This document shows, in pieces, positions 3,083 to 24,800 of a DNA stretch of 64,000 nt. Source of the DNA: a plasmid. Position numbers and translations under genes: made by a program. Below the pieces are notes generated by a model. That model was not told the origin of the DNA and ran no database searches. It saw only the letters and a list, made by a program, of their open reading frames with translations. The stretch's first letter is position 1; every line of letters begins with the position of its first letter. Where the stretch lies: the sequence record NZ_CP090684.1. One strand, written 5' to 3'.

Positions 3083-3172
3083 TCCCTCGCTGACAGGTTC
3101 ACCGCAGTTGCGGTGAGGTTCGTCCTATGCCGGACGTGGAATCCCTATGGGATTTCGCATTGGGGTTAGAAC

Positions 3173-4465: not shown

Positions 4466-4476
4466 AGGAGAACGAT

Positions 4477-9000: not shown

Positions 9001-9209
9001 ATGGCGCCGGGTCGGAGGTCATGCAGCGGATCGCCGCGCCGATGGTCGGCGGCATGGTGACCGCACCACTTCTGTCCATGTTCGTGATTCCCGCAGCGTG
9101 GTTCCTGTTGCAGCGCCGTCGCGCGCGACAGGCGCCTGCTGCCAGTTTCCCCCAAGCAGTACCTTCCGGCACGAACGTGCCAGTCAACCAAACCGGAGAA
9201 GTCCAATGA
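6003..9209 (+). CDS. cusA: Heavy-metal RND efflux pump CusA/SilA (HME-RND)
   Basis: 1068 aa, 12-TM RND architecture, with the [15 protein letters not shown] region typical of CusA/CzcA. Confidence 0.95.
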
Positions 9210-9556
9210 AGAAGCTCATCGTTGTATCTGCCGCACTCGCAGCCGCTTTCGTCACGCCCGCATTTGCCGGCAACGACATGGCTGGCATGGACATGTCGAC
9301 CAAAGCTTCCGCGATGAAGGCGTCGTCGAACAACGCACTCACCGACGCGGAGGTCAAGAAGGTCGACACGGCGACCGGCATGGTCACGTTGAAGCACGGC
9401 GCGCTCGAAAACGTCGGCATGCCGCCGATGACGATGGCGTTCAAAGCGAAGGATGCCGCGATGGTCAAGCAGATTAAGGAAGGCGACAAGGTCAAGGTGC
9501 GCGTTGAAGAAGTCAACGGCACCCTGACCATCGTGAAACTGGAAAAGCGTTCCTGA
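9206..9556 (+). CDS. cusF: Periplasmic Cu(I)/Ag(I) chaperone CusF
   Basis: [21 protein letters not shown] signal peptide. OB-fold CusF motif ...[13 protein letters not shown]... Start ATG overlaps the cusA stop (ATGA). Confidence 0.85.
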
Positions 9557-9631
9557 CGAAAACATTGGTGCCCGGCGCGCAGGCGTCTGTCCGCGCGCCG
9601 GTACGCCAAAGGGGCGGCCGAGGAGACCAAC

Positions 9632-11503
9632 ATGCGCACGACATCCTCTAACACGTATCGGTACGTCTATCGAACAGCGGACGCGTTGAGTCGCATGCTT
9701 CGCTTCGTCCTTGTGCTGGTGTTCGGACTTGTATCCTTTGCGGCATACGCAGTCAACGAATCCGAATTGCTGGCGCCCGAGCAGGCATTTCCGTTGACCG
9801 TCAGCCTTGCGAGCCATAAGGAGGTCGTGCTCGACTTCAAGACGAAGCCCGGGTATTACCTGTATCGTGACCGATTCAGCTTTGCGGTGAGCGGCGCGCC
9901 GGTAAAACCGGTTGCGATGCCTCCCTCCGAAACCAAGAACGACCCCACGTTCGGTGTCGTGCAGGTCTATCACCAGCCGGTCCGAATTCTTCTTCCGCTG
10001 TCCGCCGCCGTCACGTCAAGCGCCACGCTGACGGTGACATCCCAGGGATGTGCAGACGTTGGTGTCTGTTATCCGCCTCAGACTCGCCGCTTTCGGATCG
10101 CTGCGGACGGTGGGGTGACGCCTGCCGCGCTCGTGGGGAGCGCGAAGGGGGCGGACTTCCCTGTCGCAGAGAAAGACCGGCAGGCCACCGTACTCGGTCT
10201 ACCGCTGCGGCCGGCCAATGGTATCGGCATCGCCGAAATGCTTGGCTTCCTGTTGGCGGGTCTGCTGATGGCGGGTACCGTGTGCATGTATCCGCTCATT
10301 CCGATCGTCACGGCGGTCATTGACGGTACTCGCGAGCGGTTGCCGGTATGGCGCGGGTTCTCGCTGTCGTTGGCCTATGTGCAAGGACTGGCGATCACGT
10401 ATGCGGCAGCCGGAACTGTCGCGGCCGTCATCGGCATTCCGCTCGTGGCGCTGACGCAGAAACCCTGGTTGCTGGCCACGTTCGGCATGCTCATGCTCGC
10501 GTTCGCGCTCGGTATGTTCGGCGTGTTCCGATTGCAACTGCCGACGGGTTGGCAGACGCGGTTTGCGGGATGGAGCAAGCGCTTGCCCGGCGGCCGTGTT
10601 GGGCCCGTGTTCGTGATGGGCATGTTGTCCGCGCTGATCGTAGGGCCGTGTTCCACACCGGCGCTGGCCGGCGCACTGCTCTACATCGCAAACAGTCGTG
10701 ACATCTCAGGCGGTGCGCTGGCGCTGTATCTGATGGGTATCGGAATCGGCATTCCATTGTTGCTCGTCGGTACGTTCGGAACGCGCTTGCTGCCCAAGTC
10801 GGGACACTGGATGGTCGCCGTCCAGAACACGCTGGGGGTCATGCTGTTGGCCGCCGCGCTGTGGTTCGTTTATTCGCTGCTGCCCGCGTGGCTGCTGATG
10901 TCGCTGATCGCGTTGCTGCTCACCGCTTGCGGGACGATGCTGCGGGCGATCGACCCGTTACCGGCGGATGCTACGGGCATCGCGCGAGTCGGCAAAGCGC
11001 TCGGTGTGTTGCTGCTGGTCGCTGGTATTGCCGAGTTTGTTGGCGTCGCATCGGGCAACTTCGACATTTTGACGCCGCTGGGCGGATTGACTCGGACATC
11101 GACGTCGGCGGGCGGCGGCACAAGTGCGGCAACGCAATTCGACACGATAACCTCGAACGCGAAGCTGGACGAGGCGCTCAAGGCAGCACGAGGTCAACCT
11201 GTCATGGTGGACTTCTACGCGGACTGGTGCATCACCTGCAAGGAACTCGAACGCTTCACGTTCACGGATGCGCGCGTGATGAACGAGTTCACGCATTGGA
11301 AGTTGCTGCGCATCGACGTGACGAAGAACACCGAGGCCGACACGGCCATGTTGCGGCGGTTCGGTCTGTTCGGCCCTCCGGCGCTGATCTTCTTCGACAA
11401 GACTGGTCGGCCACAGCCCGATGCGCAATTGATCGGATTTATTGGCGCGGACACGTTCCTGGCCCATCTGAAGCGGTTGCAGTCGGGCGATGTGGCGCAA
11501 TAG
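9632..11503 (+). CDS. dsbD: Thiol:disulfide interchange protein DsbD (protein-disulfide reductase)
   Basis: N-terminal periplasmic domain, central multi-TM domain, and C-terminal thioredoxin domain (WCITCKELE). True start may be an internal Met (MLRFVLVL). Confidence 0.85.
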   Translation: MRTTSSNTYRYVYRTADALSRMLRFVLVLVFGLVSFAAYAVNESELLAPEQAFPLTVSLASHKEVVLDFKTKPGYYLYRDRFSFAVSGAPVKPVAMPPSETKNDPTFGVVQVYHQPVRILLPLSAAVTSSATLTVTSQGCADVGVCYPPQTRRFRIAADGGVTPAALVGSAKGADFPVAEKDRQATVLGLPLRPANGIGIAEMLGFLLAGLLMAGTVCMYPLIPIVTAVIDGTRERLPVWRGFSLSLAYVQGLAITYAAAGTVAAVIGIPLVALTQKPWLLATFGMLMLAFALGMFGVFRLQLPTGWQTRFAGWSKRLPGGRVGPVFVMGMLSALIVGPCSTPALAGALLYIANSRDISGGALALYLMGIGIGIPLLLVGTFGTRLLPKSGHWMVAVQNTLGVMLLAAALWFVYSLLPAWLLMSLIALLLTACGTMLRAIDPLPADATGIARVGKALGVLLLVAGIAEFVGVASGNFDILTPLGGLTRTSTSAGGGTSAATQFDTITSNAKLDEALKAARGQPVMVDFYADWCITCKELERFTFTDARVMNEFTHWKLLRIDVTKNTEADTAMLRRFGLFGPPALIFFDKTGRPQPDAQLIGFIGADTFLAHLKRLQSGDVAQ

Positions 11504-11554
11504 CGCAGCTGCCGGCGGTCGCAGCGGGACTGATCGGCGCCTATACTGGAAATC

Positions 11555-11917
11555 ATGAAATTCTGGGTCAAACTCGTTGCCTGCTTTCTGATTGCGTGGT
11601 TGCCAATGCTCGGTTACCCCGCACAGGCGGCGTTGTGTCCAGAAATGTCGTCGATGCCAGCGGTACAGCATCACATGAAGGCAGCAAGTGCGATCGAAGC
11701 GACCGGATGCACGTCCGGTACGAAGCCTCTCGGTACCAGCGATCGTCCATCTGCGTGCCACGCGGGCATGGGAAGTGCCGTGTGCGGGATGCTGGCTATA
11801 CCGATGTCGCATCGCGTCGGCATCGTCGTTTCTACGGCCGACTATCGGGCCATCACGCCGTTCCTCGCCGAGCAGTTCATTCCTGAGCTGCCAGCACCAC
11901 CCCCGCGTTCGTTGTAA
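11555..11917 (+). CDS. Hypothetical secreted Cys/His/Met-containing protein (possible metal-binding, DUF2946-like)
   Basis: Signal peptide MKFWVKLVACFLIAWLPMLGYPAQA. Motifs CPEMSSMP, ACHAGMGSAVCGM. Confidence 0.45.
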   Translation: MKFWVKLVACFLIAWLPMLGYPAQAALCPEMSSMPAVQHHMKAASAIEATGCTSGTKPLGTSDRPSACHAGMGSAVCGMLAIPMSHRVGIVVSTADYRAITPFLAEQFIPELPAPPPRSL

Positions 11918-12036
11918 CTCTCATCCGTCGACGCTTGCCCAGCGGTTCCGTACCGCGGCCCGAGTTCGCTCGTGGCCCGCGTATTCATCCGGGAAGCGTC
12001 GCATGTTCGATTCTTTGAATGCAGATGGAGATATAC

Positions 12037-12324
12037 ATGAACGCAAGTCATGCACGAATGGCGGTCCTTTCCACACTATTGGTTGCAGCGAGCGCAGTGA
12101 GCTTCGCTGCCACTGGTTCAGCGTCCGGCACGTCGGCGCAAGATCGTGAGCACGGTCACGGCTCGATGATGATGGGCGGCATGATGGGTGGTTGCCCGAT
12201 GATGGGGGGGAGCGCCGGACTGGACTCGAAGACCGCAATGCGAATGCACGCCGAGATGATGCGCGCGATGAGCGACATCATGATGAAGTATTCCGACCAG
12301 GCGGGTGCGGCACCGTCAAAGTGA
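12037..12324 (+). CDS. Met-rich periplasmic copper-binding protein
   Basis: Signal peptide, then GHGSMMMGGMMGGCPMMGGS and MRMHAEMMRAMSDIMM. A Met-rich Cu(I) ligand motif. Confidence 0.55.
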   Translation: MNASHARMAVLSTLLVAASAVSFAATGSASGTSAQDREHGHGSMMMGGMMGGCPMMGGSAGLDSKTAMRMHAEMMRAMSDIMMKYSDQAGAAPSK

Positions 12325-12376
12325 CGCAAGCCAGACCACATGACTCGCATTGAATTCCGCTTGACAAGGACTTCAC

Positions 12377-12604
12377 ATGAAATGCAACTGGAAAACCATG
12401 GTGGCTGTTGGGTCCGCACTGGTCGCCGTCATCGCCCTCGGGTACTGGGCATTTCCTCCGCTCAGAGGCCCGCTTGCAACGCTCGCCGTTATCGCCAGTG
12501 GGTTTATCTGCCCGCTATCGATGATTTTCATGATGCGCGGCATGCAATCTCACGCTGACGGTTCCGGTGTGGACACTCGCCTGACGGACAAAGCCGAACA
12601 CTGA
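12377..12604 (+). CDS. DUF2933-like small membrane protein
   Basis: 75 aa with two TM helices. Commonly linked to cop/cus clusters. Confidence 0.5.
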   Translation: MKCNWKTMVAVGSALVAVIALGYWAFPPLRGPLATLAVIASGFICPLSMIFMMRGMQSHADGSGVDTRLTDKAEH

Positions 12605-12681
12605 GCCCGCCGACTTACGTCGGTACATCGGGCCGGAGCGATGGCATTTGCCACCGCTCCGGTCCGCTTCACGGAGCGTAT

Positions 12682-12843
12682 ATGTTCACTGGGAAACCAA
12701 TCGTCAATTTCATCATTGGCCTACTCGCGGCCATCGGCCTGCTAGCGGTGCTGGGCACGGCCGCGATGTGGGGGATGCATAGCGGGATGATGCACGGCAT
12801 GCTGTCGTGTGGAAGCACGATGTATCCGCGTTCCGGAACCTGA
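12682..12843 (+). CDS. Unannotated 53-aa membrane peptide with Met/His-rich tail
   Basis: MFTGKPIVNFIIGLLAAIGLLAVLGTAAMWGMHSGMMHGMLSCGSTMYPRSGT. One TM helix plus an MxxxH/M-rich tail. Below the ORF-track size cutoff. Confidence 0.35.
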   Translation: MFTGKPIVNFIIGLLAAIGLLAVLGTAAMWGMHSGMMHGMLSCGSTMYPRSGT

Positions 12844-12865
12844 GCGGGAGTTTGGGAGATTGAAA

Positions 12866-13423
12866 ATGAAACGATACAAACGACATCAGTCTGGCAGCGC
12901 CGCCAACGAGCGCTCCGGTCGTGTCGTCAAGGTGAAGTTGAATCTGCTGTCTCTGCTTGCCCTGATTCTCGCGGTATCGACGGCGTTGGTTTGGGGGCCT
13001 TCACTTGTGCATTGGGCCTTTGGTCCAAAAAGCGCTGCGGTCACGCTGGAGAACACGGTCCAGCAGGTACCCGGCTGGCGAGTCGGAATGCTGCGCCCAG
13101 ATGGACTGCGCATCATTTCATCGGGCGTATCGGATGCCTCGCATGTACTGAACCCGGTGCAGTTTCCCGACATTGCTGTGCGGCACGCGTACTGGGTCGC
13201 GACCCAGATCCCCGCGACGCTCAACAAGCTCTACTGCTGGTGCGGATGCGAGAACCGCGGCGAGCATCGTTCGAACCTTCAGTGCTTCGAGGACAAGATG
13301 GCGGTGTCGTGCCCGGTTTGCCAAGGCACAGCCGAAATCGCTTACCAGATGACGCAAGCTGGTGTCCGGGACGCAGCGAAGATTCAAGCGGCAGTCGATG
13401 CAAAGTGGGCGCCGAAGGGATAG
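12866..13423 (+). CDS. PCYCGC-motif domain protein (metal-resistance-associated)
   Basis: Starts MKRYKRHQ. N-terminal TM helix. LYCWCGCE and CPVC motifs. Confidence 0.6.
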   Translation: MKRYKRHQSGSAANERSGRVVKVKLNLLSLLALILAVSTALVWGPSLVHWAFGPKSAAVTLENTVQQVPGWRVGMLRPDGLRIISSGVSDASHVLNPVQFPDIAVRHAYWVATQIPATLNKLYCWCGCENRGEHRSNLQCFEDKMAVSCPVCQGTAEIAYQMTQAGVRDAAKIQAAVDAKWAPKG

Positions 13424-13456
13424 CCGCCGGGCGTTTCAATTTCGAAGCAGGAGGAT

Positions 13457-13768
13457 GTGATGGAACTGAAATGCGTTGTCGCAGTGCTGCGGCCCGAGGT
13501 GCTCACCGCGCTCGAGCAGCGATTGGGTGCGTTGCACATCCATGGAATGACGGTGACCAAGGCAAAGGGATTCGGCGCGCATCCCAACTTCTTTGGCAAC
13601 GACTGGACAACGGAACACATCAGGATCGAAGTCTTTACGGTCGCAGAGAGCGTCGACGCGCTGGTCGAGGAAATTACGACGGTCGCGAACGAACAATCGG
13701 GCGGCGATGGCGTCGTGGCCGTCGTACCGGTAGAACGGTTTCTCCGAGTGCGGTCGGCGACTCCGTAA
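13457..13768 (+). CDS. P-II (GlnB-like) family protein embedded in metal-resistance cluster
   Basis: About 103 aa with the ferredoxin-like P-II fold signature (KCVVAVLRPE...HGMTVTKAKGFG...). Confidence 0.7.
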   Translation: MMELKCVVAVLRPEVLTALEQRLGALHIHGMTVTKAKGFGAHPNFFGNDWTTEHIRIEVFTVAESVDALVEEITTVANEQSGGDGVVAVVPVERFLRVRSATP

Positions 13769-13834
13769 CACCGGTTTGGCGATTGTCGGTTACCGGGAAA
13801 ATGCAATGAGATCAAAGGGATCCCAGCATACGAC

Positions 13835-14272
13835 TTAAACGTCCCTCACAGGGGGCAGAACATGGATCTTTCCAGAAGCTACCGCCTGCAGCGTTGCAAT
13901 CTCCTGACGCAGTGTTTCATTAATCGACGCCAGCGTCGCGACATCAGCCAGTGCAGCGTCTCGCTCCGCGCGGACGGTCTTCAGCTGTTCTCTTACCTTC
14001 TTGACCTCCGCAACCGTGGCGTCGCGCTGCTGCCGAATGCCGCGGCCGACTTGAGTGCGGATCTCTTCGGCGATGTCGGGGTACGTATTGTGAATGAGGC
14101 CGGCGCTTACGCCAGCCTCCGCCGCGACGGAGGAGATGCTCAATTTCAGTCCCCTCGTCTTGACCCGGAGGATCGCCAGCTGTAGCGCTTCGCGCGTCTT
14201 CCCTCTGCTACGGCGCCGGGGCGCCGACCCGGGCCGCGTATCGTCGGGCGAGGTGCCTGCACGGCTGCTCAT
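13835..14272 (-). CDS. Small HTH protein (TetR-like N-terminal helix-turn-helix plus coiled coil), TnpC-position gene of recombinase module
   Basis: HTH at LKLSISSVAAEAGVSAGLIHNTY. Overlaps the upstream recombinase stop by 4 nt. Confidence 0.55.
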   Translation of the reverse strand: MSSRAGTSPDDTRPGSAPRRRSRGKTREALQLAILRVKTRGLKLSISSVAAEAGVSAGLIHNTYPDIAEEIRTQVGRGIRQQRDATVAEVKKVREQLKTVRAERDAALADVATLASINETLRQEIATLQAVASGKIHVLPPVRDV

Positions 14273-16221
14273 GCTCCCTCCAGCGCGGCAGTGTACGCCC
14301 GGGCCCGGTCATCGGTCGGCAGCGCACAGCCGAGATCCCGCAGCACCTGCGTCGAGCGCTCCACCACGCGCCGCGCCTTATCGGCCACTGCGGGACCGCA
14401 GTCGGTGATCGCAGCTAGCCGCAGGTTGTCCAGGTGAATCATCTGCCAGGCAGATGCTTGCCCCTGGTCGATGATGGCCTGCGAGCACCCCGCGCACATT
14501 GATGGGTCGTACACCCCCTGGCCGTGACATCCTCGCGTACCACTGATGCACCACGCGTGTCCGGTGCTGCGCAGTTCGATCGACTCGGCGGTTTGTCTCA
14601 GGAGTTGCTTGAGGTCGCGTGCGGCACGCGTGCGCGTCTGCATGATCTTCTTGCCGGCACCCCCGCTGAGCAGCGCATCGGAATGCGCCCAACTTTCCAG
14701 CAGCCCCAGCCGCGCGTCGGCCATTTCCTCCTCGAACTCGCGATATAGGGCGTGATCCTGGTGCGGGCTGGCAGCGTAGAGCTGCGTCCACGACATCGAC
14801 GCATGTTTGAGTTGCCACTTCAGGAAGACGAGGCCCATTCGGCCCAACCGCGAGTTCGCGACGTTGTACGCGAAGGTGCGGCGGCACTGATGGTTGGCCA
14901 GGTTCCACTCTGTCCCGGCGGCCGCGGCCAATTGCTTCAATTGGTACCCGCAGGATGCTGAACTCAGCACCTCGACCCGCGAACCGGTTCCCAGATGATC
15001 CGAGGCTTTCACGTTCAGTCCTAGAACCAGATGCCGGCCGATCTCTCGCACATGGTTCAGGCGGTGCGCGGCCTCAGCCATTTTCATGCCGTTGCACAGG
15101 TGGCCGGTGAGATCGGGGCCCTGCGCCATCAGGTCTTCGAGCCATCGCGCCTCGCCGACCAACCGTGCTTGGAGCGGTTGGGCGTAGCGCTGCAGGATCT
15201 CAAGCGCGCGAATAGCCTCCGGCGGCACCAGAAAGTCGACCTCGGTTCCGCCGGTCGTCTTGACTTCGCGCGTGCGCACCCAGTGATACGTCACGCCGTT
15301 GCGCTGTTCGGTACGCCAACATCCGCTGGTCACGCCGGTGCTCTCCGAGTTGCGCATTCCGGAGGAGATCTGCAAGAGGTATAGGACCGCATTGCGGATC
15401 GAAGTCATTGCGGGGCGCTTGGGCGCCCCGAGCCCGCCCGCGTCTCGAGCCTGAAACAGCTCGTCCGCCTGCGCAAGACTGGCCTCGCAGTAGGCGAAAA
15501 GTATGCGCTGCACCGACCGCGGGATCACGGGGGTCGTGCCGGTCCGCCCTGACGGCATCCGATTATCTTCATTGCCGCCACATGCATCCCAAAGGGCGAG
15601 CCCCGCCCACGGGTGCTCGAGCAACGGGTGCAGGACTTCCGTATGGAACGTCCAGACCAGGTCGACAATTTGCAGCCGACCACGCACCGACACGGGCTTG
15701 AGCGTACGCCGCAAATCCGCGATGTGGTCAGACAGGTGCAGAGCTCGTACCTGACTGAAGTCGGCCAGCCCCAATTGTGCGAGATATCTCAGAGCCAGGA
15801 CGCCCGAGCGGCCAATATCCGCTATCGAGCTGCCGGACCACTTTCGCCCGTGGGGGCCGCGTCGCTGAGCACAATAGAGTGCCGCCTTGGCATCGTCGAT
15901 CAGTGCTTTCGGTACGTCGTCCGGCCAAACGATCTTCAGGGCCGAACCCTTGCGGTTCTTCGCCTCGATCTCCGGCGCGAGGTCCCAGACCCGATCACCG
16001 AAACGACTCACTGGATGCTCGTGGCCTGCGGCATCGGCCACGGCAGTCACCACGATAGCGTCACGTTCGGCCGGCGGAATGCCGACCAGGCTGATCGGCT
16101 GAGCCGCCAGCAACTCGAAGGCCCGCAGGGCACGTGGGGCGGGCAAGGATGTGGCCGGCACGGCGCGAGCCCCAGATAGCGTTTGGGGCGTGTCAAGGAT
16201 CGAGGCAGAGGTACTTCTCAT
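14269..16221 (-). CDS. Tyrosine recombinase (third of trio, 650 aa)
   Basis: Box I-like SGMRNSES. Box II-like CRRTFAYNV...LKHASMSWTQLYAA. Confidence 0.75.
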   Translation of the reverse strand: MRSTSASILDTPQTLSGARAVPATSLPAPRALRAFELLAAQPISLVGIPPAERDAIVVTAVADAAGHEHPVSRFGDRVWDLAPEIEAKNRKGSALKIVWPDDVPKALIDDAKAALYCAQRRGPHGRKWSGSSIADIGRSGVLALRYLAQLGLADFSQVRALHLSDHIADLRRTLKPVSVRGRLQIVDLVWTFHTEVLHPLLEHPWAGLALWDACGGNEDNRMPSGRTGTTPVIPRSVQRILFAYCEASLAQADELFQARDAGGLGAPKRPAMTSIRNAVLYLLQISSGMRNSESTGVTSGCWRTEQRNGVTYHWVRTREVKTTGGTEVDFLVPPEAIRALEILQRYAQPLQARLVGEARWLEDLMAQGPDLTGHLCNGMKMAEAAHRLNHVREIGRHLVLGLNVKASDHLGTGSRVEVLSSASCGYQLKQLAAAAGTEWNLANHQCRRTFAYNVANSRLGRMGLVFLKWQLKHASMSWTQLYAASPHQDHALYREFEEEMADARLGLLESWAHSDALLSGGAGKKIMQTRTRAARDLKQLLRQTAESIELRSTGHAWCISGTRGCHGQGVYDPSMCAGCSQAIIDQGQASAWQMIHLDNLRLAAITDCGPAVADKARRVVERSTQVLRDLGCALPTDDRARAYTAALEGA

Positions 16222-18119
16222 GCCCTGGGTCCTGCCTGCTGCGTTCCGCGAATCCGCGGTATCGCCGTATCGCCGTGCGAGCCATCAACGCGCAGATCCG
16301 GCGCTGACGCACGGTGTCGTGCGCGGCGGCTCATGGTCATCTGGTGCTGCCAGTAAGGGTGCAAGCCCGAGACGGTCTTGGCGCGGGCCTGCGCGACCCG
16401 GCTGCGCGCGAATTGGCGTTGCGTGAAGTCGTCGATGTAGGGGATGACCACCCGGTATCGGTCGCGCAGGTCCTCAAGCAGTCCGTCGGTCGTGCGCTCC
16501 GGACCCAAGGCTTCGTCAAGGTAGTCGAGTTCGGCCTGCGCGAACATCTGAAAGCTGAACAAGCGCCAGAGTTCGTCCACGGTGCCGACGATCGCGAAGC
16601 TCGAGCAGAACAAGCACATGACGTAGCGATCGCAGTGGCTGCGGCCATCATTCGGCGCATGCTCGCCGCTGATCGAGTCCGAGCATGCGGAGACGGGCGT
16701 CGGGCTTGGCGGGGCGCTTATGCTGCCTTTGCCGACCTTGAAAGGTTCCACTTGCACTGGCCGAATCTCATTCCCCCTCGGAGCCTGTGCTTCGGCCCGC
16801 ATCAAAACGGTATAGTCGCCGTTCATGAAGCTCGCTGCATCGGCCTTGCGCGCCTCATTCATCGACGGGTAATTCACTCCGGCGACCCTCGGTGTGTTGC
16901 CCATCAGGTTGGCGGTGATGGCTATGTCGCCGTCGGCGGTACGCAGAGCACGGTCGAAGCGGCTCTTACGCAGGCGACTCAGGTTGACGCGCAACGGCAG
17001 GCCGCCGTCTCCCAGTAGACTGCGGCGTTCGATGACGCCTTCGATTGCCCTGTTGAGGGACTTGCTGTCGAGGCACGTGATGTTGCCCCTCTTTGTCGAC
17101 CCTGCACTTGCTTCAGCGCGATACAGCCAGATCCGTGTCTTGAACGCGGATGGCGCCTCACCCACCAGTTCGCGGGTGCTTGCGATGGCCTGCTGCAAGA
17201 CTGCGCCCTCGGAGAGGTCGAAGCAAAGGTTCTGCTCGTCAGCTTGCTCGTTCGGTTGATTTGATGCGTGCCGTCCAAGAGCGGAGCGGCCAACATTGGA
17301 ACGAATCTTCTTGCTGCGGTGCTTTGCAGTACGAATTAGGATCGTGCCAGGCAGAAATCCCGGCGCTAAGGCATCGCGGCACATTTCGAGCAGGGGCGTC
17401 GGGTTGAGCCCTTGACGGTGTGCCACCAACAACAGCCTGAGTCCCTGCACGGCACTTTGCTTCAGTTGCAAGCGGCCGTGGTGAACATCAACGAGGTCGG
17501 ACTTGATCGCCTTGGCCAGGCGCTCTTGCTCCGCGTCACTCAGGCTAGTCTGCAGGCTGTCTTCGCTGCTCCAGGGCAACGCGCCGCGCCGGAAGAAGCG
17601 AGAAGGCTCGCCCTCGATGAAGCCCTGCGCGAACATTTCGGCGAGTACGGCCTTGACCCCCCTGTAGGTATTGCGCGTCGAACTCGGTCGCCAGCCTTCA
17701 GCCTGAGCTCGCTTCTGCAACCATCCGATGAAATGCTGGACATGCATCGGGGAAAGGTCCGACGGCAACTTGGGTCGCTGGGGCAGCGGGGTTTGCGAAC
17801 TGCCCGCGAGGTACTCGAACAGGTAAGGCAGCTGCCCGAAGTACGTGGTGACGGAGGCTGTCGCGCGTGCACCCGAGAGCAGCATCGCCTTGAGGCAGAA
17901 GCCCGATGAGCATACCCAGTCGTCGATGCCTCGGCCCAGCCAGTCACGAAGGTCGAGCGTCTTGATTCTCTGAGGAAAGCGTGCCTCGAGCCCCAACAGC
18001 GCGACCATGTCGATGCAGGCGTCGTCGGCGCCGGGCTTCGGCCGTTCGAGTGATGCCGATATGACACCGACCGGTGCGGCGCGATTCTCGCTGACGTTGT
18101 AGTTCTTCTTTCTGACCAT
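16218..18119 (-). CDS. Tyrosine recombinase (second of trio, 633 aa, TnpB-of-Tn554-sized)
   Basis: Degenerate box II LRKSRFDRALRT...LMGNTPRVAGVNYPSM. Size matches Tn554 TnpB (~630 aa). Confidence 0.65.
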   Translation of the reverse strand: MVRKKNYNVSENRAAPVGVISASLERPKPGADDACIDMVALLGLEARFPQRIKTLDLRDWLGRGIDDWVCSSGFCLKAMLLSGARATASVTTYFGQLPYLFEYLAGSSQTPLPQRPKLPSDLSPMHVQHFIGWLQKRAQAEGWRPSSTRNTYRGVKAVLAEMFAQGFIEGEPSRFFRRGALPWSSEDSLQTSLSDAEQERLAKAIKSDLVDVHHGRLQLKQSAVQGLRLLLVAHRQGLNPTPLLEMCRDALAPGFLPGTILIRTAKHRSKKIRSNVGRSALGRHASNQPNEQADEQNLCFDLSEGAVLQQAIASTRELVGEAPSAFKTRIWLYRAEASAGSTKRGNITCLDSKSLNRAIEGVIERRSLLGDGGLPLRVNLSRLRKSRFDRALRTADGDIAITANLMGNTPRVAGVNYPSMNEARKADAASFMNGDYTVLMRAEAQAPRGNEIRPVQVEPFKVGKGSISAPPSPTPVSACSDSISGEHAPNDGRSHCDRYVMCLFCSSFAIVGTVDELWRLFSFQMFAQAELDYLDEALGPERTTDGLLEDLRDRYRVVIPYIDDFTQRQFARSRVAQARAKTVSGLHPYWQHQMTMSRRARHRASAPDLRVDGSHGDTAIPRIRGTQQAGPRA

Positions 18120-18127
18120 GGCGTCGC

Positions 18128-19363
18128 TCAGTGTCGAGGATCGACTGTGGATGCATGCGGCGCCGTGGCCAATGCTTTGCCAACCCCGTAGAGCCGGTCA
18201 AACTCGTCCATCATCGCGAGCGCCTCTGCGCCCAGCAGCCGCTCTATCTGCTGCAAATACACCATGGTGGTCTGGACACTCGCGTGGCCGAGGCGGTCGC
18301 GGACGTACATGAGCGGCTCCATCGGTATCTCGGGACGGCTGCGAAGCAGCAGCAGGGTATGAATCGCGTAGCTGTGGCGCAGCATGAGCGGGCGCACCCG
18401 GAAGCCCACCGTGTTGCTGAGATCGGTGTAGACCTTCACCGCGGATTCCTTGCTGTAGCGTTGCCCGTGAATCGTCAGGATCAGTTCCTTGCGGTCTGCC
18501 GCGTCGGCAAGACCGTTGCGCTCGAATGTCGTATATGCGTACATGTCCTCCATCAGGCTGTATGGCACGTGCACAACGCGGGACTTGTTGAACTTGATCT
18601 CCATGTCCCGTGGGTCGAGGCGCACGTCGATAAAGGTGCCTGGCTTCCAAGCCTTTTGGGTCCGTGGATCAACCACGTACGACAGCGGGAAGGTACGTGC
18701 CTCGACTGAGCGCAAACCCACCCGCGCCATCAGGTCGAACAGCAGCCGCTGCGCTGCAGAGCGAATCGATTGCCGCACGATCTTCAGTTGATCGGCTGTC
18801 AGGAACGCAGGTTCCTTGTTCCACTCGTTGAGCAGCACTGCCGGACGGCTCGACCTCTTCCGACCGCCGGTGATATGAGTCAGGTCATGCTCAATGCCGT
18901 ACACTGCGACGTCGGAACAGGTGAAGGGCAAGCGGTCGATCCGCCCGCGTTCATGTGCCCACCGGTACATTGCCGTGACCAATTCCAACCGGGCGTTGAT
19001 GGTTGCGGGGTCCAGCTTGAGGTCTTGGGCCTGCCAATCGCGGTAAACACTGACGACGCTCTGCCCAACCGACATGAATGGATCGTCCCAACACCATTCG
19101 TTCGCTTGTAGAAATCGAGCGAAATCCCATAGCCGGCGACCGTACGCCTCCCACGTCTTTTGATCAAGCGCCTTTCCGCTCTCAAGCAATCGGTACAGCA
19201 GGTAGTCATGGAACGGTTGCGCCGGCTCCATCGAATCGTCGAGGATCAAGGGGAATCCCGGCCGCGGGCGTCCGGCGAAGACAAACTCATCAGTGGCGCG
19301 TACGTACCTCACGCGCTGGCCTCGCGCAACATCTTCGCTGCTTGCTTGAATGGCACGCGCCAT
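18128..19363 (-). CDS. Tyrosine recombinase (first of trio, 411 aa)
   Basis: Box I VGLRSVEARTF. Box II LRHSYAIHTLL...LGHASVQTTMVYLQ. Confidence 0.85.
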   Translation of the reverse strand: MARAIQASSEDVARGQRVRYVRATDEFVFAGRPRPGFPLILDDSMEPAQPFHDYLLYRLLESGKALDQKTWEAYGRRLWDFARFLQANEWCWDDPFMSVGQSVVSVYRDWQAQDLKLDPATINARLELVTAMYRWAHERGRIDRLPFTCSDVAVYGIEHDLTHITGGRKRSSRPAVLLNEWNKEPAFLTADQLKIVRQSIRSAAQRLLFDLMARVGLRSVEARTFPLSYVVDPRTQKAWKPGTFIDVRLDPRDMEIKFNKSRVVHVPYSLMEDMYAYTTFERNGLADAADRKELILTIHGQRYSKESAVKVYTDLSNTVGFRVRPLMLRHSYAIHTLLLLRSRPEIPMEPLMYVRDRLGHASVQTTMVYLQQIERLLGAEALAMMDEFDRLYGVGKALATAPHASTVDPRH

Positions 19364-19735
19364 TGGCGCATCACGAGGTCGTCGGCACCGTCAGCAATCG
19401 CGCGCGCCGCGAGGCAATGCAGCCGCCCTATTTCCGGATCATCCATAGGTTGCCAAATCTCCCCCGAATTCCATCCCGCTACTCGACTTCAAGAAATTGA
19501 ATAGCAGTACACAGGACGATGTCTGTCAACCCATTTATTACTAACAAAACGAGGTATTCGTACCGATGCATCGTGCCGATCAAATCGTCGAACGTCGACG
19601 CATGGCTGGCGCCGGATCCGTCTCGCCGCGCGCAGCTGCGCGAGATCCTCGCCGATCGCGAACGGCCCTACTACGAGCACCAACTGGCGGCGTAATTCGG
19701 GTAGGGATTGGAGTCGGCATGGGGAATGGCATATA

Positions 19736-19751
19736 CTGTATAAACATACAG
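19736..19751 (+). promoter_or_regulatory. LexA (SOS) box CTGTATAAACATACAG
   Basis: Perfect CTGT-N8-ACAG palindrome 18 nt upstream of the imuA ATG. Confidence 0.75.
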
Positions 19752-19769
19752 TGCCAGAACCCCACGACC

Positions 19770-20486
19770 ATGCAAGCCGCTCTTGCCCATCCTGAAACCA
19801 TCCATCCCGCGCTCTGGCGTGCCAGCCAGCTGGCGCGCTCGAGCTCGCGCGGCGTCGACACGGGGCACGCTGAGCTGACCGCCGAGCTACCCGGCGGCGG
19901 CTGGCCCGCGGGCGCGCTGGTCGATTTGCTGACGCAGCAGGCCGGCATCGGCGAGCTCCGGCTACTCGCGCCTGTACTGGCGCGCTCGAGCGGCCGACCG
20001 ATCATGCTGATCCAGCCGCTGCACGGGCTGCAGCCGCTGGCGCTGTCGTATTGGGGTGTCGATTCGTCCAGCTTCGTCCTGCTGCCTGCCCCGCGCACCG
20101 CCGACGCACTGTGGGCCGCCGAGCAGGTGCTGCGCGCCGGCACGTGCGCGGCTGTCCTGCTGTGGCAGTCAAACGTGCGCGCGGACGCGCTGCGGCGTCT
20201 GAACCTGGCCGCGCAAACCGGATCCGCACTGTTTTTCCTGTTCCGGCCGGCGGCCGCCGCACGCGACGCGTCGCCGGCGCCATTGCGGCTCGCGCTGGCC
20301 CCCAAGCGCGACGGCATCGAGATCACGTTCGTGAAGCGCCGCGGACCCGCGCGCGATACGCCGTTGTTCGTCCCGTTGTCCCCTTCGCCGATTTTGTTGA
20401 ATCGCCATGCAAGTCTGGATCGGCGTGCATCTGCCGCACCTCAACCTCGAAACGTTCCGGCCACGCTCGCCGGCGCCATCGCCTGA
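19770..20486 (+). CDS. imuA: ImuA, SOS-inducible RecA/SulA-like component of mutagenesis cassette
   Basis: Start at MQAALAHPETIHPALWRASQLA. The ORF-track extension to 19566 runs across the LexA box and is spurious. Confidence 0.75.
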   Translation: MQAALAHPETIHPALWRASQLARSSSRGVDTGHAELTAELPGGGWPAGALVDLLTQQAGIGELRLLAPVLARSSGRPIMLIQPLHGLQPLALSYWGVDSSSFVLLPAPRTADALWAAEQVLRAGTCAAVLLWQSNVRADALRRLNLAAQTGSALFFLFRPAAAARDASPAPLRLALAPKRDGIEITFVKRRGPARDTPLFVPLSPSPILLNRHASLDRRASAAPQPRNVPATLAGAIA

Positions 20487-21885
20487 CGATGCGCGCGGTC
20501 TCGTCGTGCTCGAGAGCGGCCGTGTCGTGGCGCTGGACCGTGCCGCGCGCGCGCTCGGCATCGTCGTCGGCATGCGGCGCGCCGGCGTGCTGTCGCTCGC
20601 GCCCGACGCACAGATCCGCGAGCGCGACGTCGTGCGAGAACGCGAACTCGTGCTCGGCGTCGCGTACGCGCTGCTGCAGTTCACGCCGAACGTCGTCGAC
20701 GCTGACGAAGCAGTGGTACTGCTCGACGTGACGGCCAGCCTGCGCCTTTTCCATGGCATTCGCGCGCTGCGCCGGCGCGTGCGCGACGTCGTCGCGTCGT
20801 TCGGCGTCTCCGCGGCAATCTCCGTCGCGTCGACAGGCCCGGCCGCATGGATGGTCGCGCGCGGGCTGCGCGGCGGCCTCGCGCTGTCTGCCCGGTCATT
20901 GCGCCGCGCGCTCGCGCGCGTGCCGCTCGTGGTCGCCCCTGATGCGCGGCGGTACGCGACGTGGTTCGACGAGCTCGGCTGCGAAACGCTGGCGGACCTG
21001 CAGCGCCTGCCCCGCGCCGGGCTCAAGAAGCGTTGCGGCACGCAGCTGCTCGACTGGCTCGACCAGGTGGCCGGCACTGCGCCGGCGGCCTATGACTGGC
21101 TCGACATGCCGCCGTCGTTCGACACGCGCGTCGAGCTGATGGACCGCGTCGAGCACGCCGAGGCGCTGTTGTTTGTCGCGCGCCGGCTGATCCTGCAGCT
21201 GACCGGTTGGCTCACGGCGAAGCAGCTGGACGTCGCAGCATTCGCGCTGCTGCTCGAGCACGAGCGCGGACGCGACGCGATTGCGCCGACCGAGATCGAG
21301 ATTTCGCTGGGCGCCCCCACGCGCTTCGAAGAGCACCTGACCCGGCTCGTCAAGGAGCGGCTTGGCCATGTCGAGCTCGCCGGGCCCGTGATCGCCGTGC
21401 GGCTCGTCGCGCGACGCGTGCAGGAAGCGGCCGCGCCGAGCGATTCGTTGTTCCCGGAACCCGGCGGCACGCCGCAGGATCACGCTCGATTGCTGGAACT
21501 GCTCACCGCGCGCCTCGGCGCAGAGAATGTGCTGGTCCCGGCTCCCATAGCCGACTACCGTCCGGAGCCGGCCGCCCGATGGGTGCCGATGCGCGACGCG
21601 CCGAAGGCGGCACCGCTGCCGGCGGATTTGCCGCGCCCCGCCTGGCTGCTCGCCAAGCCGGTGCCGCTGCTCACGCGCCAACACCGGCCGTTCTACGGTA
21701 CACCGCTGCGCATGGTGTCGCCTGGCGAGCGTATCGAAGGCGGATGGCAGGACGGGCAGACTGTGACGCGCGACTACTTCGTTGCCGAGGACGACAACGG
21801 CATCTGCTACTGGATCTTCAAGGAGCGGCCGACGGCCAGCGACGAAAGCGACTCGCGCTACTTTCTGCACGGCCTGTTCGGTTGA
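20407..21885 (+). CDS. imuB: ImuB, Y-family polymerase-like protein
   Basis: N-terminus MQVWIGVHLPHLNLE matches the ImuB consensus. Lies between imuA and dnaE2. Overlaps the imuA 3' end. Confidence 0.8.
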   Translation: MQVWIGVHLPHLNLETFRPRSPAPSPDDARGLVVLESGRVVALDRAARALGIVVGMRRAGVLSLAPDAQIRERDVVRERELVLGVAYALLQFTPNVVDADEAVVLLDVTASLRLFHGIRALRRRVRDVVASFGVSAAISVASTGPAAWMVARGLRGGLALSARSLRRALARVPLVVAPDARRYATWFDELGCETLADLQRLPRAGLKKRCGTQLLDWLDQVAGTAPAAYDWLDMPPSFDTRVELMDRVEHAEALLFVARRLILQLTGWLTAKQLDVAAFALLLEHERGRDAIAPTEIEISLGAPTRFEEHLTRLVKERLGHVELAGPVIAVRLVARRVQEAAAPSDSLFPEPGGTPQDHARLLELLTARLGAENVLVPAPIADYRPEPAARWVPMRDAPKAAPLPADLPRPAWLLAKPVPLLTRQHRPFYGTPLRMVSPGERIEGGWQDGQTVTRDYFVAEDDNGICYWIFKERPTASDESDSRYFLHGLFG

Positions 21886-21891: not shown

Positions 21892-24800
21892 ATGAGCGCT
21901 GCGAGCTACGGCGCCCTGCCCGCCTATGCGGAGCTGCAGGTCGCCAGCGACTTCTCGTTTCTGCACGGCGCGTCGCGCGCCGAGGAATACGTGGCGCGCG
22001 CGGCACAGCTCGGCTACAGCGCGATCGCGATCACCGATGAGTGCTCGCTCGCCGGCGTCGTGCGCGCGCACGTCGAAGCGAAGGCAGCCGGCCTGCCTCT
22101 GATCATCGGCTCGCACTTCCGGCTGACGGCCGCCGACGGCGCGCCGGCGATCGCGTTCAGCGCGCTCGCGATGAATCGCGACGGCTACGGCAACCTCTGC
22201 GAACTGGTGTCGCTCGGCCGTATGCGCGGCAAGAAAGGCAGCTACCGGTTGGCGCCGCGCGATCTCGAGCAGCCGGACGCGCCATTCACGCATCTGCGCG
22301 GCTTGCCCGACTGCATTGCGATCCTGTCGCCCGACTTCCCGGCCAATGAGCAGCGGCTCGACGCGCAGGTCGAATGGTTCGCGCGCGTGTTCGGCGATCG
22401 CGCATGGGTCGCGCTCACGCTGCATGCGCGTGCGATGGACGATATCCACCGCGGTGTCGTTGAACGCGTCGCCGCGCGCCACGGCGTGCCGGTGGTCGCA
22501 ACCAGCTGGCCGCTGATGCATGTGCGATCGCGCAAACCGCTGCAGGACGTTCTGACGTCAATCCGGCTGGGGCGGCCGGTGTCCGAGTGCGGATACGAGC
22601 TCGCGCCGAATGCAGAGCGGCATTTGCGATCGCGCTTGCGGCTTGCCAACCTCTACCCGGCCGGCGCGCTCGAGGAGACCGTGCGGGTCGCGCGGCGCTG
22701 CACGTTCTCACTCGACGACCTGAAGTACGAATATCCGGACGAGGTGGTTCCAGCCGGCTACGACGTCGCGACCTACCTGCGCGAACAGACGTATATCGGT
22801 GCGCAGCGGCGCTTTCCGGCCGGCATTCCGGTCGACGTGCAGGCGCAGATCGAACACGAGCTGCAGTTGATCGCGGAACTGAACTACGAGGCGTATTTCC
22901 TGACCGTCTACGACATCGTGCAATTCGCGCGTCAGAACGGCATCTTGTGCCAGGGCCGCGGGTCGGCGGCGAACTCCGCCGTCTGCTACTGCCTCGGCAT
23001 GACGGAGGTCGATCCCTCCCGTCAGTCGATGCTGTTCGAGCGGTTCATGAGCAAGGAGCGCAACGAGCCGCCGGACATCGACGTCGACTTCGAGCATCAG
23101 CGTCGCGAAGAGGTGATGCAGTACATCTACCGCAAGTACGGCCGCGATCGCGCGGCGCTGACCGCGGCCGTCAGCACGTACCGACCGCGCAGCGCATTGC
23201 GCGAGGCCGGCAAAGCGCTCGGCGTGGATCCGGCGATCGTCGATCGGGTCGCCAAAAGTCACCACTGGTTCGACTCGCGCGCGGATCTGCTCCAGCGTTT
23301 CGCCGAAGCCGGTCTCGATCCCGAGGCGCCGCTCAATCAGCAGTGGGCCGCGTTCGCCGCTCAGCTGCTCGGCTACCCGCGCCATCTGTCGCAGCACTCG
23401 GGTGGCTTCGTGATCAGCCGCGGCAAGCTCACGCGACTCGTGCCGGTCGAGAATGCCGCGATGGAAGATCGCACGATCATCCAGTGGGACAAGGACGATA
23501 TCGAAGCGCTCGGCATCCTGAAAATCGACGTGCTCGCGCTCGGCATGCTGTCGATGGTGCGCCGCGCGCTCGACATGATCTCGGAGAAGCGCGGCGAAAC
23601 GTTTGAGCTGCAGGACATACCGGCCGAAGACAAAGCGACCTACGACATGCTGTGCGACGGCGACAGCATGGGCGTATTCCAGGTCGAGTCGCGCGCGCAG
23701 ATGTCGATGCTGCCGCGCCTACGGCCGCAATGCTTCTACGATCTCGTGATCGAGGTCGCGATCGTTCGACCCGGCCCCGTGCAGGGCGGCATGGTGCATC
23801 CATATCTCCGCCGCCGGCAGGGACTTGAGCCCGTCACGTTCCCTTCAGACGGCATGGAAAAGGCGCTGAAGCGCACGCTCGGCGTGCCGATCTTCCAGGA
23901 GCAGGTGATGCAGGTCGCCATGCTTGCGGCCGGCTTCTCCGCCGGCGAGGCCGATCAGCTGCGACGTGCGATGGCGGCATGGAAACGCAAGGGCGGCCTC
24001 GAGCCATACCACGATCGGCTCGTGAGCGGCATGCTCGAGCGCGGCTACGATCGCGAATTCGCCGAGGCGATCTTCGCGCAGATCAAGGGCTTCGGCGAGT
24101 ACGGGTTTCCGGAGAGCCATGCGGCCAGCTTCGCGTTGCTCGTCTACTCGAGCGCGTGGTTGCGCCGGCACGAGCCGGCCGTGTTTCTGGCCTCGTTGCT
24201 CAACAGTCAGCCGATGGGCTTCTATACACCATCGCAGCTGCTGCAGGACGCGCGACGCCGTGGCGTTGAAGTATTACCTGTCGACGTGAACGTGAGCACG
24301 TGGGATTCAGTCATCGAGGGGCCGACGACCTCGGCGCCGGTGCGTCTCGGATTCTCACTGCTGCGCGGCATGCGCGCGGACGTCGCCGGCCGCATCGAGC
24401 TCGCGCGCGCGGTGCGGCCGTTCGTCGACGTCGCGGATCTCGCTCGACGGGCGCAGCTCGATCGGCACGACCTGCAGGTACTCGCCCGCGCGAACGCGCT
24501 GCGCTCGCTCGCCGGCGGCAATCGTCGCGCCGCGCTGTGGCTGGCGGCCGCGGCGATCCCCGATCGGGATCTGTTGCGCGGCACTGAGCGTGACGACGCC
24601 GTGCCGGCGCTGCCGCAGGCGTCGGAAGGCAAGGAGATTGTGACCGACTATCGCGCGATGGGCTTCACGCTCGGCCGGCACCCACTGGCGCTGCTGCGCG
24701 ATCGTCTGACGCTCGATCGTTTGCAGTCGGCCGAGCAGCTGGCAACGTTACGCAGCGGCCAGCTCGCGCGCGCATGCGGACTGGTCACCGTGCGACAACG

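Follow-up and report, generated by a model that had tools for sequence, protein, structure and literature searches.

What kind of genetic unit is formed by tandem genes for three tyrosine recombinase-like proteins and a small protein of 145 aa? The window, that is the whole stretch of 64,000 nucleotides of plasmid record NZ_CP090684.1 that we analysed, carries such an array, which a first-pass annotation had taken for a possibly distinct or hybrid family of transposable module inserted right after a copper island. We believe that at positions 13835-19563 a Burkholderia plasmid very probably carries the core-gene end of an inserted SE (strand-biased circularizing integrative element), a type of element known from the work of Nonaka, Idola, Yano and colleagues (PMC9345347, PMC10214605). 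The support for this assignment is in silico and lies in the homology of four proteins, the exact ends, the empty targets, the near-identical copies in divergent plasmids and the pattern of hexamers at the junctions.

The module comprises four co-directional open reading frames whose sizes of 411, 633, 650 and 145 aa were correctly given in the first pass, and all four lie on the minus strand:

18128-19363, minus strand: intA, up to 411 aa, tyrosine recombinase of ordinary size (RefSeq start 19249)
16218-18119, minus strand: tfp, 633 aa, predicted tyrosine-recombinase-fold protein, active site degenerate, Cys4 cluster invariant
14269-16221, minus strand: intB, 650 aa, large, predicted catalytic tyrosine recombinase with a C-terminal His/Cys cluster
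13835-14272, minus strand: srap, 145 aa, matched to the Srap protein of plasmid pPME5

The GC3 values of the four frames (0.71-0.76) are of the coding type. Stop and start codons had been described as overlapping throughout, and they do so by 4 nt (ATGA) at the 633/650 junction (16218-16221) and, as also described for the small gene and the last recombinase, at the 650/145 junction (14269-14272); at the 411/633 junction, however, the TGA stop is followed by a gap of 8 nt and then by the ATG. The order intA-tfp-intB-srap is kept in nine of nine Burkholderiales genome loci that have the whole module on the contig, and the genes present at three further loci, which are ended by a contig edge, follow it too; these 12 loci come from a contig scan with two peptide patterns and speak for presence in the Burkholderiales rather than for frequency.

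In blastp comparisons all four proteins match, collinearly and with E values from 2e-107 to 2e-27, those of the SE on Pseudomonas mendocina plasmid pPME5, our reference SE, whose tfp and srap appear among the entries of Additional file 3 of the SE paper (PMC10214605). With such orthologue-level matches to all four core proteins the locus reads as a member of the SE family and not as a distinct or hybrid one, while its description as a site-specific mobile recombinase module holds good. IntA (43.5% identity to pPME5 IntA, E 2e-107) matches Pfam Phage_integrase with 35 bits, above the cut-off, and gave no match in a PDB sequence search. Its 411 aa represent the longest possible reading frame, RefSeq calling 373 aa, and the alignment with its homologues begins at residue 18 of this frame. 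Alignment with XerD assigns the catalytic positions to R218, L326, R329, H360 and Y369, with L326 standing for the His of the HxxR motif; Leu occupies this position in 10/10 betaproteobacterial IntA copies, whereas the Pseudomonas copies have His. IntB (38.8% identity to pPME5 IntB, E 5e-140) scores 25.8 bits with Phage_integrase, just below the cut-off of 27.1, and its best match in a PDB sequence search reaches only E 0.1. Among 26 homologues R290, K321, R447, H473 and Y482 are invariant and H444 is nearly so, and the HxxR...H...Y pattern aligns to that of XerA (5hxy), so that IntB is predicted to have the full set of catalytic residues.

The 633-aa protein, Tfp, shares 30% identity with pPME5 Tfp WP_010794484 (E 2e-81), has no Pfam, NCBIfam or PDB sequence match and shows no pairwise similarity to IntB detectable by blastp. 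Profile comparison with SE Tfp by hhalign gave a probability of 100% (E 8.6e-76), and Foldseek matched its AF2 model (pLDDT 65.9) to XerH, Tn1549 Int and Cre with a probability of 1.0. On these grounds Tfp is predicted to be a recombinase-fold protein. At the R-H-R-H-Y positions, assigned by motif alignment as opposed to structural superposition, it has Asn-Ser-Arg-Asn-Tyr, with Asn239 for Arg I, Ser381 for His II, and Arg384 and Tyr417 kept; it further contains an invariant Cys4 cluster. This agrees with the published description of Tfp, in which a recombinase fold goes with a catalytic set that is incomplete (PMC10214605). More speculatively, the invariant Arg-Tyr pair and Cys4 cluster might mean that Tfp is no inert scaffold but acts as a third recombinase with partial activity. 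The label of three tyrosine recombinases accordingly suits the 411-aa protein, narrowly misses the Pfam threshold for the 650-aa protein and is a matter of fold prediction for the 633-aa protein. As to the R-H-R-Y residues, by which the first-pass annotation had proposed to judge its own reading, these are lost in Tfp and, through the change of His to Leu, in part in IntA, and the set is complete in IntB. Such loss is the known SE pattern and is not evidence against mobility. Finally, the 145-aa Srap shares 50.5% identity with pPME5 Srap WP_008567186 (blastp, E 2e-27). What speaks for the earlier call of a helix-turn-helix protein are sub-threshold Pfam matches, which recur in Srap orthologues (TetR_N in 5/5, DUF6262 in 4/5), and the RefSeq name "TetR family".

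Where, then, does the element end? The whole element measures 49,346 bp, the last 19.5 kb of which lie in the window. That its ends could not be defined there, as had been stated, is because one end is located about 29.8 kb before the window start. The full element is annotated in NZ_CP143553.1, a record from which positions 1-19700 of the window differ by 3 nt. The copper genes are not neighbours after which the recombinase genes were inserted, as first proposed, but cargo inside the same 49,346-bp element. Within the window, the remainder of the element and its surroundings are laid out as follows:

1-13834: proximal 13.8 kb of element cargo, with CopD, DUF4148, cus-type RND, DsbD, a PCYCGC protein and a P-II protein (Pfam)
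3173-9209: cus-type RND efflux system with OEP, MFP-CusF and AcrB-type pump (Pfam)
19364-19563, minus strand: intA-proximal non-coding end, from junction alignments with empty sites and other copies
19538-19563, minus strand: terminus, motif C, read inward from 19563 as GTACGAATACCTCGTTTTGTTAG
19564-19569: CGATGC, the 6-bp crossover spacer at attL, on the side of intA, and the middle hexamer of the target CACGAC-N6-ATCGTG
19570-19695, plus strand: 3' remnant of a gene for an SOS-response-associated peptidase (SRAP/YedK-type), last 42 codons and stop
19736-19751: LexA-box-like CTGT-N8-ACAG outside the element, the sole such motif in the window
19771-20487, plus strand: imuA, outside the element (Pfam, RefSeq)
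20407-21885, plus strand: imuB, outside the element (Pfam, RefSeq)
21892-25041, plus strand: dnaE2, outside the element (Pfam, RefSeq)

Beyond the window start the annotation of NZ_CP143553.1 adds czc-type RND, P-type ATPase, ars and cop genes to the cargo; no mobilisation genes were seen among the annotated genes of the element. Its G+C content is 63% as compared to 61% for the surrounding plasmid. At the intA-side end TTTTGTTAG is conserved in the Burkholderia relatives that were aligned or read. A scan of 19200-19850 for promoters and terminators found none; just inside the terminus there is a conserved TTGACA, after which no -10 hexamer is acceptable by the rules of the tool.

The insertion lies within the SRAP peptidase gene, a short way upstream of the SOS-regulated imuA-imuB-dnaE2 cassette; the replicon is an F-type conjugative plasmid of B. 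multivorans, and the window is 100% identical to B. multivorans plasmids over 6.3 kb. RPA, KorA and ParAB genes had raised the suspicion of a Tn4371-type ICE context, which was ruled out, the surroundings being those of the conjugative plasmid. The 5' part of the target gene lies beyond the distal end of the element in NZ_CP143553.1, and in the element-free plasmid NZ_CP090750.1 the gene is intact and 915 bp long. Empty CACGAC-N6-ATCGTG sites are present in this and at least four other Burkholderia plasmids; element-free plasmids keep the target gene intact, and one of them has a backbone of 97% identity. In six plasmids the boundaries of the element fall at identical points. The copy in B. 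vietnamiensis differs by 3 nt (99.994% identity over 49,346 bp) while its flanks are only 78-83% identical, and relatives with other cargo occupy the same site, namely CBASS in B. ambifaria MC40-6 and opine-type genes in JP2-270. Comparison with relatives that lack the insertion, which had been suggested as a check, has thus yielded empty sites, ends and target, and the module does not consist of fixed genes.

Both the split attB and the 6-bp spacer can be clearly recognised at the junctions. In a spacer table of six plasmid copies and the window, the distal (attR) hexamer is CGATGC in every copy, whereas the intA-side (attL) hexamer is CGATGC, AGGTGT or CGTTGC and tracks the local target allele. 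An attL of AGGTGT or CGTTGC together with an attR of CGATGC is found in B. vietnamiensis, B. aenigmatica, IDO3 and MBR-1. This pattern fits the SE/Tn554 footprint; the polarity rests on three to four informative insertions, which are perhaps not all independent and all have the same polarity, and the distal CGATGC, being constant, might also be an invariable piece of the element itself. In MC40-6 the two spacers, TGGTGT and CGGTGC, differ from each other and are silent on polarity. In SEs the joint forms imperfect inverted repeats around the 6-bp spacer. The terminal inverted repeat seen here is weak: 12 of 23 positions match (blocks GAATAC and GTTAG), with P ~0.005 in a single register, and a displacement of GTTAG by 1 nt puts the MC40-6 copy out of register. 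We do not use it as main evidence because of the weak match and this shift.

By analogy with the Vibrio SEs (PMC10214605), attL would be recombined with attR on one strand by IntA and IntB, with Tfp (non- or semi-catalytic) and Srap, a small DNA-binding protein, as helpers. The product would be a nicked double-stranded circle carrying the 6 bp that flank the intA end, and this circle would insert site-specifically and leave the carried 6 bp at the distal junction. The donor site would never be left empty in such a copy-out/copy-in cycle, and spread from cell to cell would occur by hitch-hiking on the conjugative plasmid.

But could the same proteins not drive a classical island, which is cut out and pasted in as are lambda or ICEs, free of strand bias and with spacers that differ through segregation of a heteroduplex? 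Heteroduplex segregation would give an attL of target and an attR of element origin in about half of the progeny per event, the informative insertions number only three to four, and some GInts do restore empty sites (PMC5385486). Nevertheless, all informative insertions have the same polarity, and in the Vibrio SEs, which are homologous, strand bias is strict and no empty site is left (PMC10214605). We regard a classical mode as improbable.

A GInt (Bardaji et al. 2017, PMC5385486), the ginABCD type of genomic island with its three integrases, would likewise have its four-gene recombination operon at one end and its cargo after the small gene, insert site-specifically and be flanked by short direct repeats. 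GInts are reported in Betaproteobacteria, with direct flanking repeats of 10-11 nt and an AT-rich far end, and circular forms are known for the family (PMC5385486); here, an identical 11 bp, ACCGATGCATC, lies at both junctions in B. multivorans. Moreover, the SE paper reports ginC-ginD blocks in 69 betaproteobacterial replicons (PMC10214605), and the Burkholderia loci described here could be among those. Against this, blastp with GinA-D of E. coli Sakai, the one GInt compared, gave no significant match (best E 0.058), and the Tfp profile matched that of E. coli GinC with a probability of 1.2%. The degenerate protein is third in GInt operons and second here, and protein sizes of 401/437/543/132 aa contrast with the 411/633/650/145 aa of our locus. 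A GInt is, in our opinion, very unlikely.

Even less credible is a transposon of the Tn554 family (TnpA/TnpB/TnpC) that acquired an extra recombinase. The first-pass annotation was right in seeing a Tn554-like architecture: Tn554 and its kin from Staphylococcus, Enterococcus and Actinobacteria also combine an ordinary and a ~630-aa tyrosine recombinase with a small auxiliary protein, insert site-specifically and carry 6 bp from the previous site, a 6-bp sequence at one junction being listed by the SE paper among the features shared with Tn554 (PMC10214605), and Srap has its weak DUF6262 matches. It was equally right that the third large protein is foreign to Tn554, which has three genes only, resides in Gram-positive hosts and, by its published description, has no Tfp counterpart (PMC10214605). 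Tfp, in contrast, is conserved in every relative examined, and its gene is an ancient family-wide component, not a recent addition. The equation of the 411- and 633-aa proteins with TnpA and TnpB therefore fails: the 633-aa protein is no TnpB counterpart, because its active site is degenerate, and the catalytic large recombinase would be the 650-aa IntB. In a tblastn search with IntB of 72,556 plasmids (E <=0.01), moreover, neither Staphylococcus nor Enterococcus was among the 10 commonest genera or the 40 matches listed. A RIT element, as known from Cupriavidus and others and common in Betaproteobacteria, or a fixed, non-mobile plasmid recombinase set such as a multimer-resolution system resembles our locus in that a plasmid bears three recombinase-like genes, co-directional and briefly overlapping, but its probability is negligible, since RIT elements encode proteins of 315-410 aa, all with the catalytic Tyr and a complete motif, have 34-bp terminal repeats (PMC10214605, Table 1), lack a small fourth gene and have no cargo in the descriptions of them that we consulted, whereas two proteins here exceed 630 aa and one is degenerate, an inverted-repeat search between the two element ends found no 34-bp terminal repeat, and element-free plasmids with intact target and identical copies in divergent flanks refute a fixed set.

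Like SE-6283, SE-6945 and SE-PaeBT2436 (PMC9345347, PMC10214605), the Burkholderia element has at one end the four core genes, identically ordered and oriented and with short overlaps, no mobilisation genes seen among those annotated, a Srap with a TetR-like N-terminus and a coiled-coil C-terminus, site-specific insertion with a 6-bp spacer in which attL has the target hexamer and attR the carried one, and resistance cargo in a length of 49,346 bp, within the published range of 6.4-58.5 kb. Different from published SEs are its host, a betaproteobacterium, the Leu for the HxxR His of IntA, the target, an SRAP peptidase gene upstream of imuABC, the G+C content, which is not below that of the plasmid, and the weak terminal inverted repeat.

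What had been noted as a possible new family of recombinase trios is thereby recast as a defined element with ends, target and cargo. The SE paper found no Tfp or Srap homologues outside Gammaproteobacteria, including in Betaproteobacteria (PMC10214605). For Tfp and for IntB alike we find more than 150 relatives, and every one with a named organism is from Burkholderiales or a Burkholderiales-type metagenome bin; such relatives are common in Burkholderiales and form a large clade there. The Burkholderia host is read as an extension of the published SE host range, which describes distribution and is no criterion of mechanism. The published confinement to Gammaproteobacteria is contradicted. Plain BLAST ties the Burkholderia Tfp to a listed Pseudomonas Tfp (E 2e-81), and arguments for host dependence and a marine origin of the SE family would need to be revisited. 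A 49-kb island of heavy-metal and arsenic resistance, moreover, is passing with hardly any change (3 differences over its length) from plasmid to plasmid among different species of the Burkholderia cepacia complex. Its carriers include cystic-fibrosis isolates. With the natural insertions into targets of differing central hexamers, the 6-bp footprint rule can readily be put to the test in a new host.

Why would an SE insert next to genes of the damage response? In the Pseudomonas plasmid relatives pGRT1 and pPME5 the insertions occupy the position of umuC, adjacent to umuD. Copy-out of an SE is believed to require removal of covalently bound recombinase, that is processing of a DNA-protein crosslink, and SRAP proteins are DNA-protein crosslinking enzymes. 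Insertion in an SRAP gene might couple the activity of the element to the host damage response, or protect it from that response. A joint reading, in which a missed Burkholderiales clade of SEs shares with its Pseudomonas relatives a preference for SOS and translesion-repair genes, perhaps with coupling to the damage response and a partly active Tfp, is speculative and, taken as a whole, rather doubtful. If it is true, the targeting of SOS and repair genes would be more than the use of a convenient conserved landing site on plasmids.

Four-gene recombinase operons have been described in two families: the GInt islands with ginABCD (PMC5385486) and the SEs, or strand-biased circularizing integrative elements, with intA-tfp-intB-srap (PMC10214605). 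By homology, architecture, the character of its Tfp protein, target structure and junction pattern, the element on this B. multivorans plasmid is an SE. Its four co-directional core ORFs, with coding-type GC3 values of 0.71-0.76, are:

18128-19363, minus strand, IntA, 411 aa
16218-18119, minus strand, Tfp, 633 aa
14269-16221, minus strand, IntB, 650 aa
13835-14272, minus strand, Srap, 145 aa

ATGA overlaps join tfp to intB and intB to srap, and at the intA-tfp junction a TGA stop is followed by an 8-nt gap and then an ATG. In Pfam and NCBIfam, IntA gives Phage_integrase and XerC/D-type matches above cut-off, IntB a match to just the C-terminal half of the integrase domain, slightly under cut-off, Srap sub-threshold DUF6262 and TetR-type matches, and Tfp no match in either collection. 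As SE reference we used the element of P. mendocina plasmid pPME5 (tfp and srap in Additional file 3 of PMC10214605), to which all four proteins match in collinear order.

Blastp matches of the four core proteins to the pPME5 SE
411 aa to IntA: 43.5% identity, E 2e-107
633 aa to Tfp: 30% identity, E 2e-81
650 aa to IntB: 38.8% identity, E 5e-140
145 aa to Srap: 50.5% identity, E 2e-27

Against GinA-D of the E. coli Sakai GInt (Additional file 10 of PMC10214605), the one GInt compared, blastp of the same proteins gave no significant match. Likewise, a Tfp profile of 29 relatives matched the full length of pPME5 Tfp (probability 100%, E 8.6e-76) and gave no match to Sakai GinC (probability 1.2%). 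The pPME5 matches, the profile match and the lack of a Gin match therefore identify the element as an SE. Identities as a GInt, a Tn554-type transposon (TnpA/TnpB/TnpC) or a recombinase-in-trio (RIT) element were tried by membership tests and rejected.

Within IntB, R290, K321, R447, H473 and Y482 are invariant in 26 homologues and H444 is nearly so, and the HxxR...H...Y segment aligns with XerA. The catalytic positions of IntA are R218, R329, H360 and Y369 by alignment with E. coli XerD, in which R148, K172, H244, R247, H270 and Y279 fell as expected; the His position of HxxR is occupied by Leu326. This residue is Leu in 10 of 10 betaproteobacterial copies and His in both Pseudomonas SE copies, and the exchange is a clade-wide active-site substitution. 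For Tfp, an AlphaFold model of moderate confidence (mean pLDDT 65.9) finds its best PDB matches in XerH, the Tn1549 integrase and Cre (probability 1.0), and motif alignment places Asn239, Ser381, Arg384, Asn408 and Tyr417 at the R-H-R-H-Y positions. Tfp thus has a recombinase fold and, in agreement with the published description, an active site that is incomplete, although it keeps its Tyr; both Arg384 and Tyr417 recur in each of the eight Tfp sequences compared, two of them from Pseudomonas. Since the active site of Tfp is incomplete and the set in IntB complete, the first-pass annotation was wrong in pairing the 411- and 633-aa proteins with TnpA/TnpB; of the large proteins, it is IntB (650 aa) that is the catalytic enzyme. 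The C-terminal extension of each large protein also holds a Cys-rich cluster that is invariant (C479, C496, C502 and C505 in Tfp; H555, C558, C565, C576 and C579 in IntB), that of Tfp being kept between Burkholderiales and Pseudomonas sequences. These clusters suggest zinc-binding modules, of which we found no mention in the available portions of the SE (PMC10214605) and GInt (PMC5385486) papers.

The limits of the element emerge from comparison with related plasmids. Two B. multivorans plasmids match window positions 13400-19700 at 100% identity, and plasmids of B. vietnamiensis, B. aenigmatica and two Burkholderia sp. do so at 99.6-99.7%; in 11 other Burkholderia plasmids the match starts only at 19562-19582, inside a gene for an SOS-response-associated peptidase (SRAP). 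The element-free NZ_CP090750.1 has an intact SRAP gene of 915 bp between an H-NS gene and imuA-imuB-dnaE2, and in element-carrying plasmids the 5' part of the gene is found about 49 kb away. Alignment of the empty and occupied sites in B. multivorans reveals the same 11 bp (ACCGATGCATC) at both sides of an insert of 49,346 bp end to end, which carries beside the core genes czc-type and cus-type RND pumps, a P-type ATPase, an ars operon, cop genes, dsbD and more. Window position 1 is position 30135 of the 50-kb element locus, and therefore only the final 19.5 kb of the element lie within the window. As the element extends past the window start, the "copper island", previously regarded as a separate neighbour, is cargo of this same element.

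The remaining window is plasmid backbone with RPA and TrfA replication genes, ParAB, a LigD-type ligase and F-type transfer genes, and is 97% identical to the backbone of an element-free B. multivorans plasmid. Its two unrelated replication initiators (RPA-type, 25470-26594; TrfA-type, 43992-44849), each with ParB-type genes nearby, together with the LigD-type ATP-dependent ligase (40086-41234) suggest a cointegrate or multi-replicon backbone. A segment at 33308-36446, with a G+C content of about 70% against roughly 60% in the neighbouring plasmid, encodes a 770-aa integrase (DUF3701 and Phage_integrase) adjoining a 274-aa ORF without Pfam match and may represent a further module for mobility or recombination.

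For the 49-kb element, junction hexamers were tabulated from its six plasmid-borne copies.

Junction hexamers (attL, intA-side junction; attR, distal junction)
B. multivorans copies: attL CGATGC, attR CGATGC (both ends in one plasmid; second plasmid and window, attL only)
B. vietnamiensis, B. aenigmatica and Burkholderia sp. IDO3 copies: attL AGGTGT, attR CGATGC
Burkholderia sp. MBR-1 copy: attL CGTTGC, attR CGATGC

At attL the hexamer varies with the divergent flank of the host, and at attR it stays constant. MBR-1 has G as the host base following the spacer but ATC at the distal junction, so that the distal terminus of the element falls at ATCTGAATAC... and the spacer measures exactly 6 bp. 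A common core, CACGA[C/T]-N6-AT[C/T]GT[G/C], is present in the empty target sites of five plasmids, the central hexamer being CGATGC in B. multivorans, AGGTGC in B. cenocepacia J2315 and B. pyrrocinia, and AGGTGT in B. cenocepacia CMCC. The terminal inverted repeat is weak (12/23 positions, with GAATAC and GTTAG blocks).

How might this polarity have arisen? It is read from only 3-4 informative insertions, and an unbiased heteroduplex model would yield the observed polarity half the time per event; the constant CGATGC at attR may also be a fixed terminal hexamer of the element. For SEs and Tn554, according to the SE paper, experiments have shown that attL receives the hexamer of the target, and attR a hexamer from the intA-side flank of the donor (PMC10214605), and judged by sequence the hexamers here follow the same pattern. 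If they were indeed passed on as in SEs and Tn554, the B. multivorans-type site would be the donor for the other plasmids. The predicted circular joint would read ...GTATTCAGAT-N6-GTACGAATAC..., and movement may proceed by the strand-biased copy-out mechanism proposed from Vibrio SE work. The B. vietnamiensis and B. multivorans copies differ at 3 of 49,346 nt, whereas their flanks are 78-83% identical; the movement of the unit was therefore recent and independent of the DNA around it.

The same SRAP site is taken, with different cargo, by relatives of about 86% identity: one of about 11 kb in B. ambifaria MC40-6 carries CBASS genes and one of about 14 kb in JP2-270 opine-type genes. The MC40-6 element (pBMC401, 2900-13700) encodes a CBASS oligonucleotide cyclase and an ImmA/IrrE-HTH pair and no metal-resistance genes; SEs of this clade therefore also move anti-phage defence cargo. 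The SE paper reports having found no Tfp or Srap homologues in Alpha- or Betaproteobacteria, and it counts 69 betaproteobacterial "GInt" replicons, among which Burkholderia SE loci may be included (PMC10214605). Searching plasmids with Tfp by tblastn returned 80 records from Pseudomonas, 12 from Burkholderia, 10 from Paraburkholderia and 7 from Cupriavidus, with Polaromonas, Diaphorobacter and Acidovorax among the matches listed. In a large protein database, relatives with E up to 1e-5 numbered 177 for Tfp and 160 for IntB, those named coming from Burkholderia, Caballeronia, Paraburkholderia, Trinickia, Cupriavidus, Ralstonia, Polaromonas, Variovorax, Acidovorax, Pelomonas, Azohydromonas, Piscinibacter and Albidiferax. 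All 12 representative-genome loci are from Burkholderiales, and the order intA-tfp-intB-srap is found in 9/9 loci whose contig spans the whole module. A search of one literature collection for the SE term together with Burkholderia found no paper. New here are the class of the host, a target that is defined, the large cargo of metal-resistance genes and the IntA His-to-Leu change.

Some replicons hold more than one such module. Azohydromonas lata NZ_BCTC01000016.1 (57205-92392) has two different SE core modules, separated by about 16 kb and oriented alike, whose Tfp proteins are 55% and 37% identical to that of the window; these could be SEs in tandem or one nested in the other. Burkholderia sp. 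IDO3 plasmid p1 (NZ_CP028965.1) matches Tfp in three places, among them the 49-kb element, here interrupted by an IS21 insertion, and another SE, whose IntB at 77326-79275 is 87% identical; a single replicon can therefore accumulate SEs.

The target SRAP gene lies upstream of the SOS-controlled imuABC cassette. The insertion truncates this gene by 42 codons and leaves the LexA-type box and imuA-imuB-dnaE2 intact. The box (CTGT-N8-ACAG, 19736-19751), 20 nt upstream of imuA, is the only one in the 64-kb window. The nearest Pseudomonas plasmid SEs directly follow umuD, at the expected position of umuC (pGRT1 locus, 3101-3767; pPME5 locus, 7747-10284). A 49-aa polymerase fragment is left at that position in pGRT1, an SRAP peptidase gene adjoins the SE site in pPME5, and one of the Azohydromonas SEs (L025) adjoins a dnaE2 fragment. 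SOS and translesion loci thus look like recurrent landing sites of SEs.
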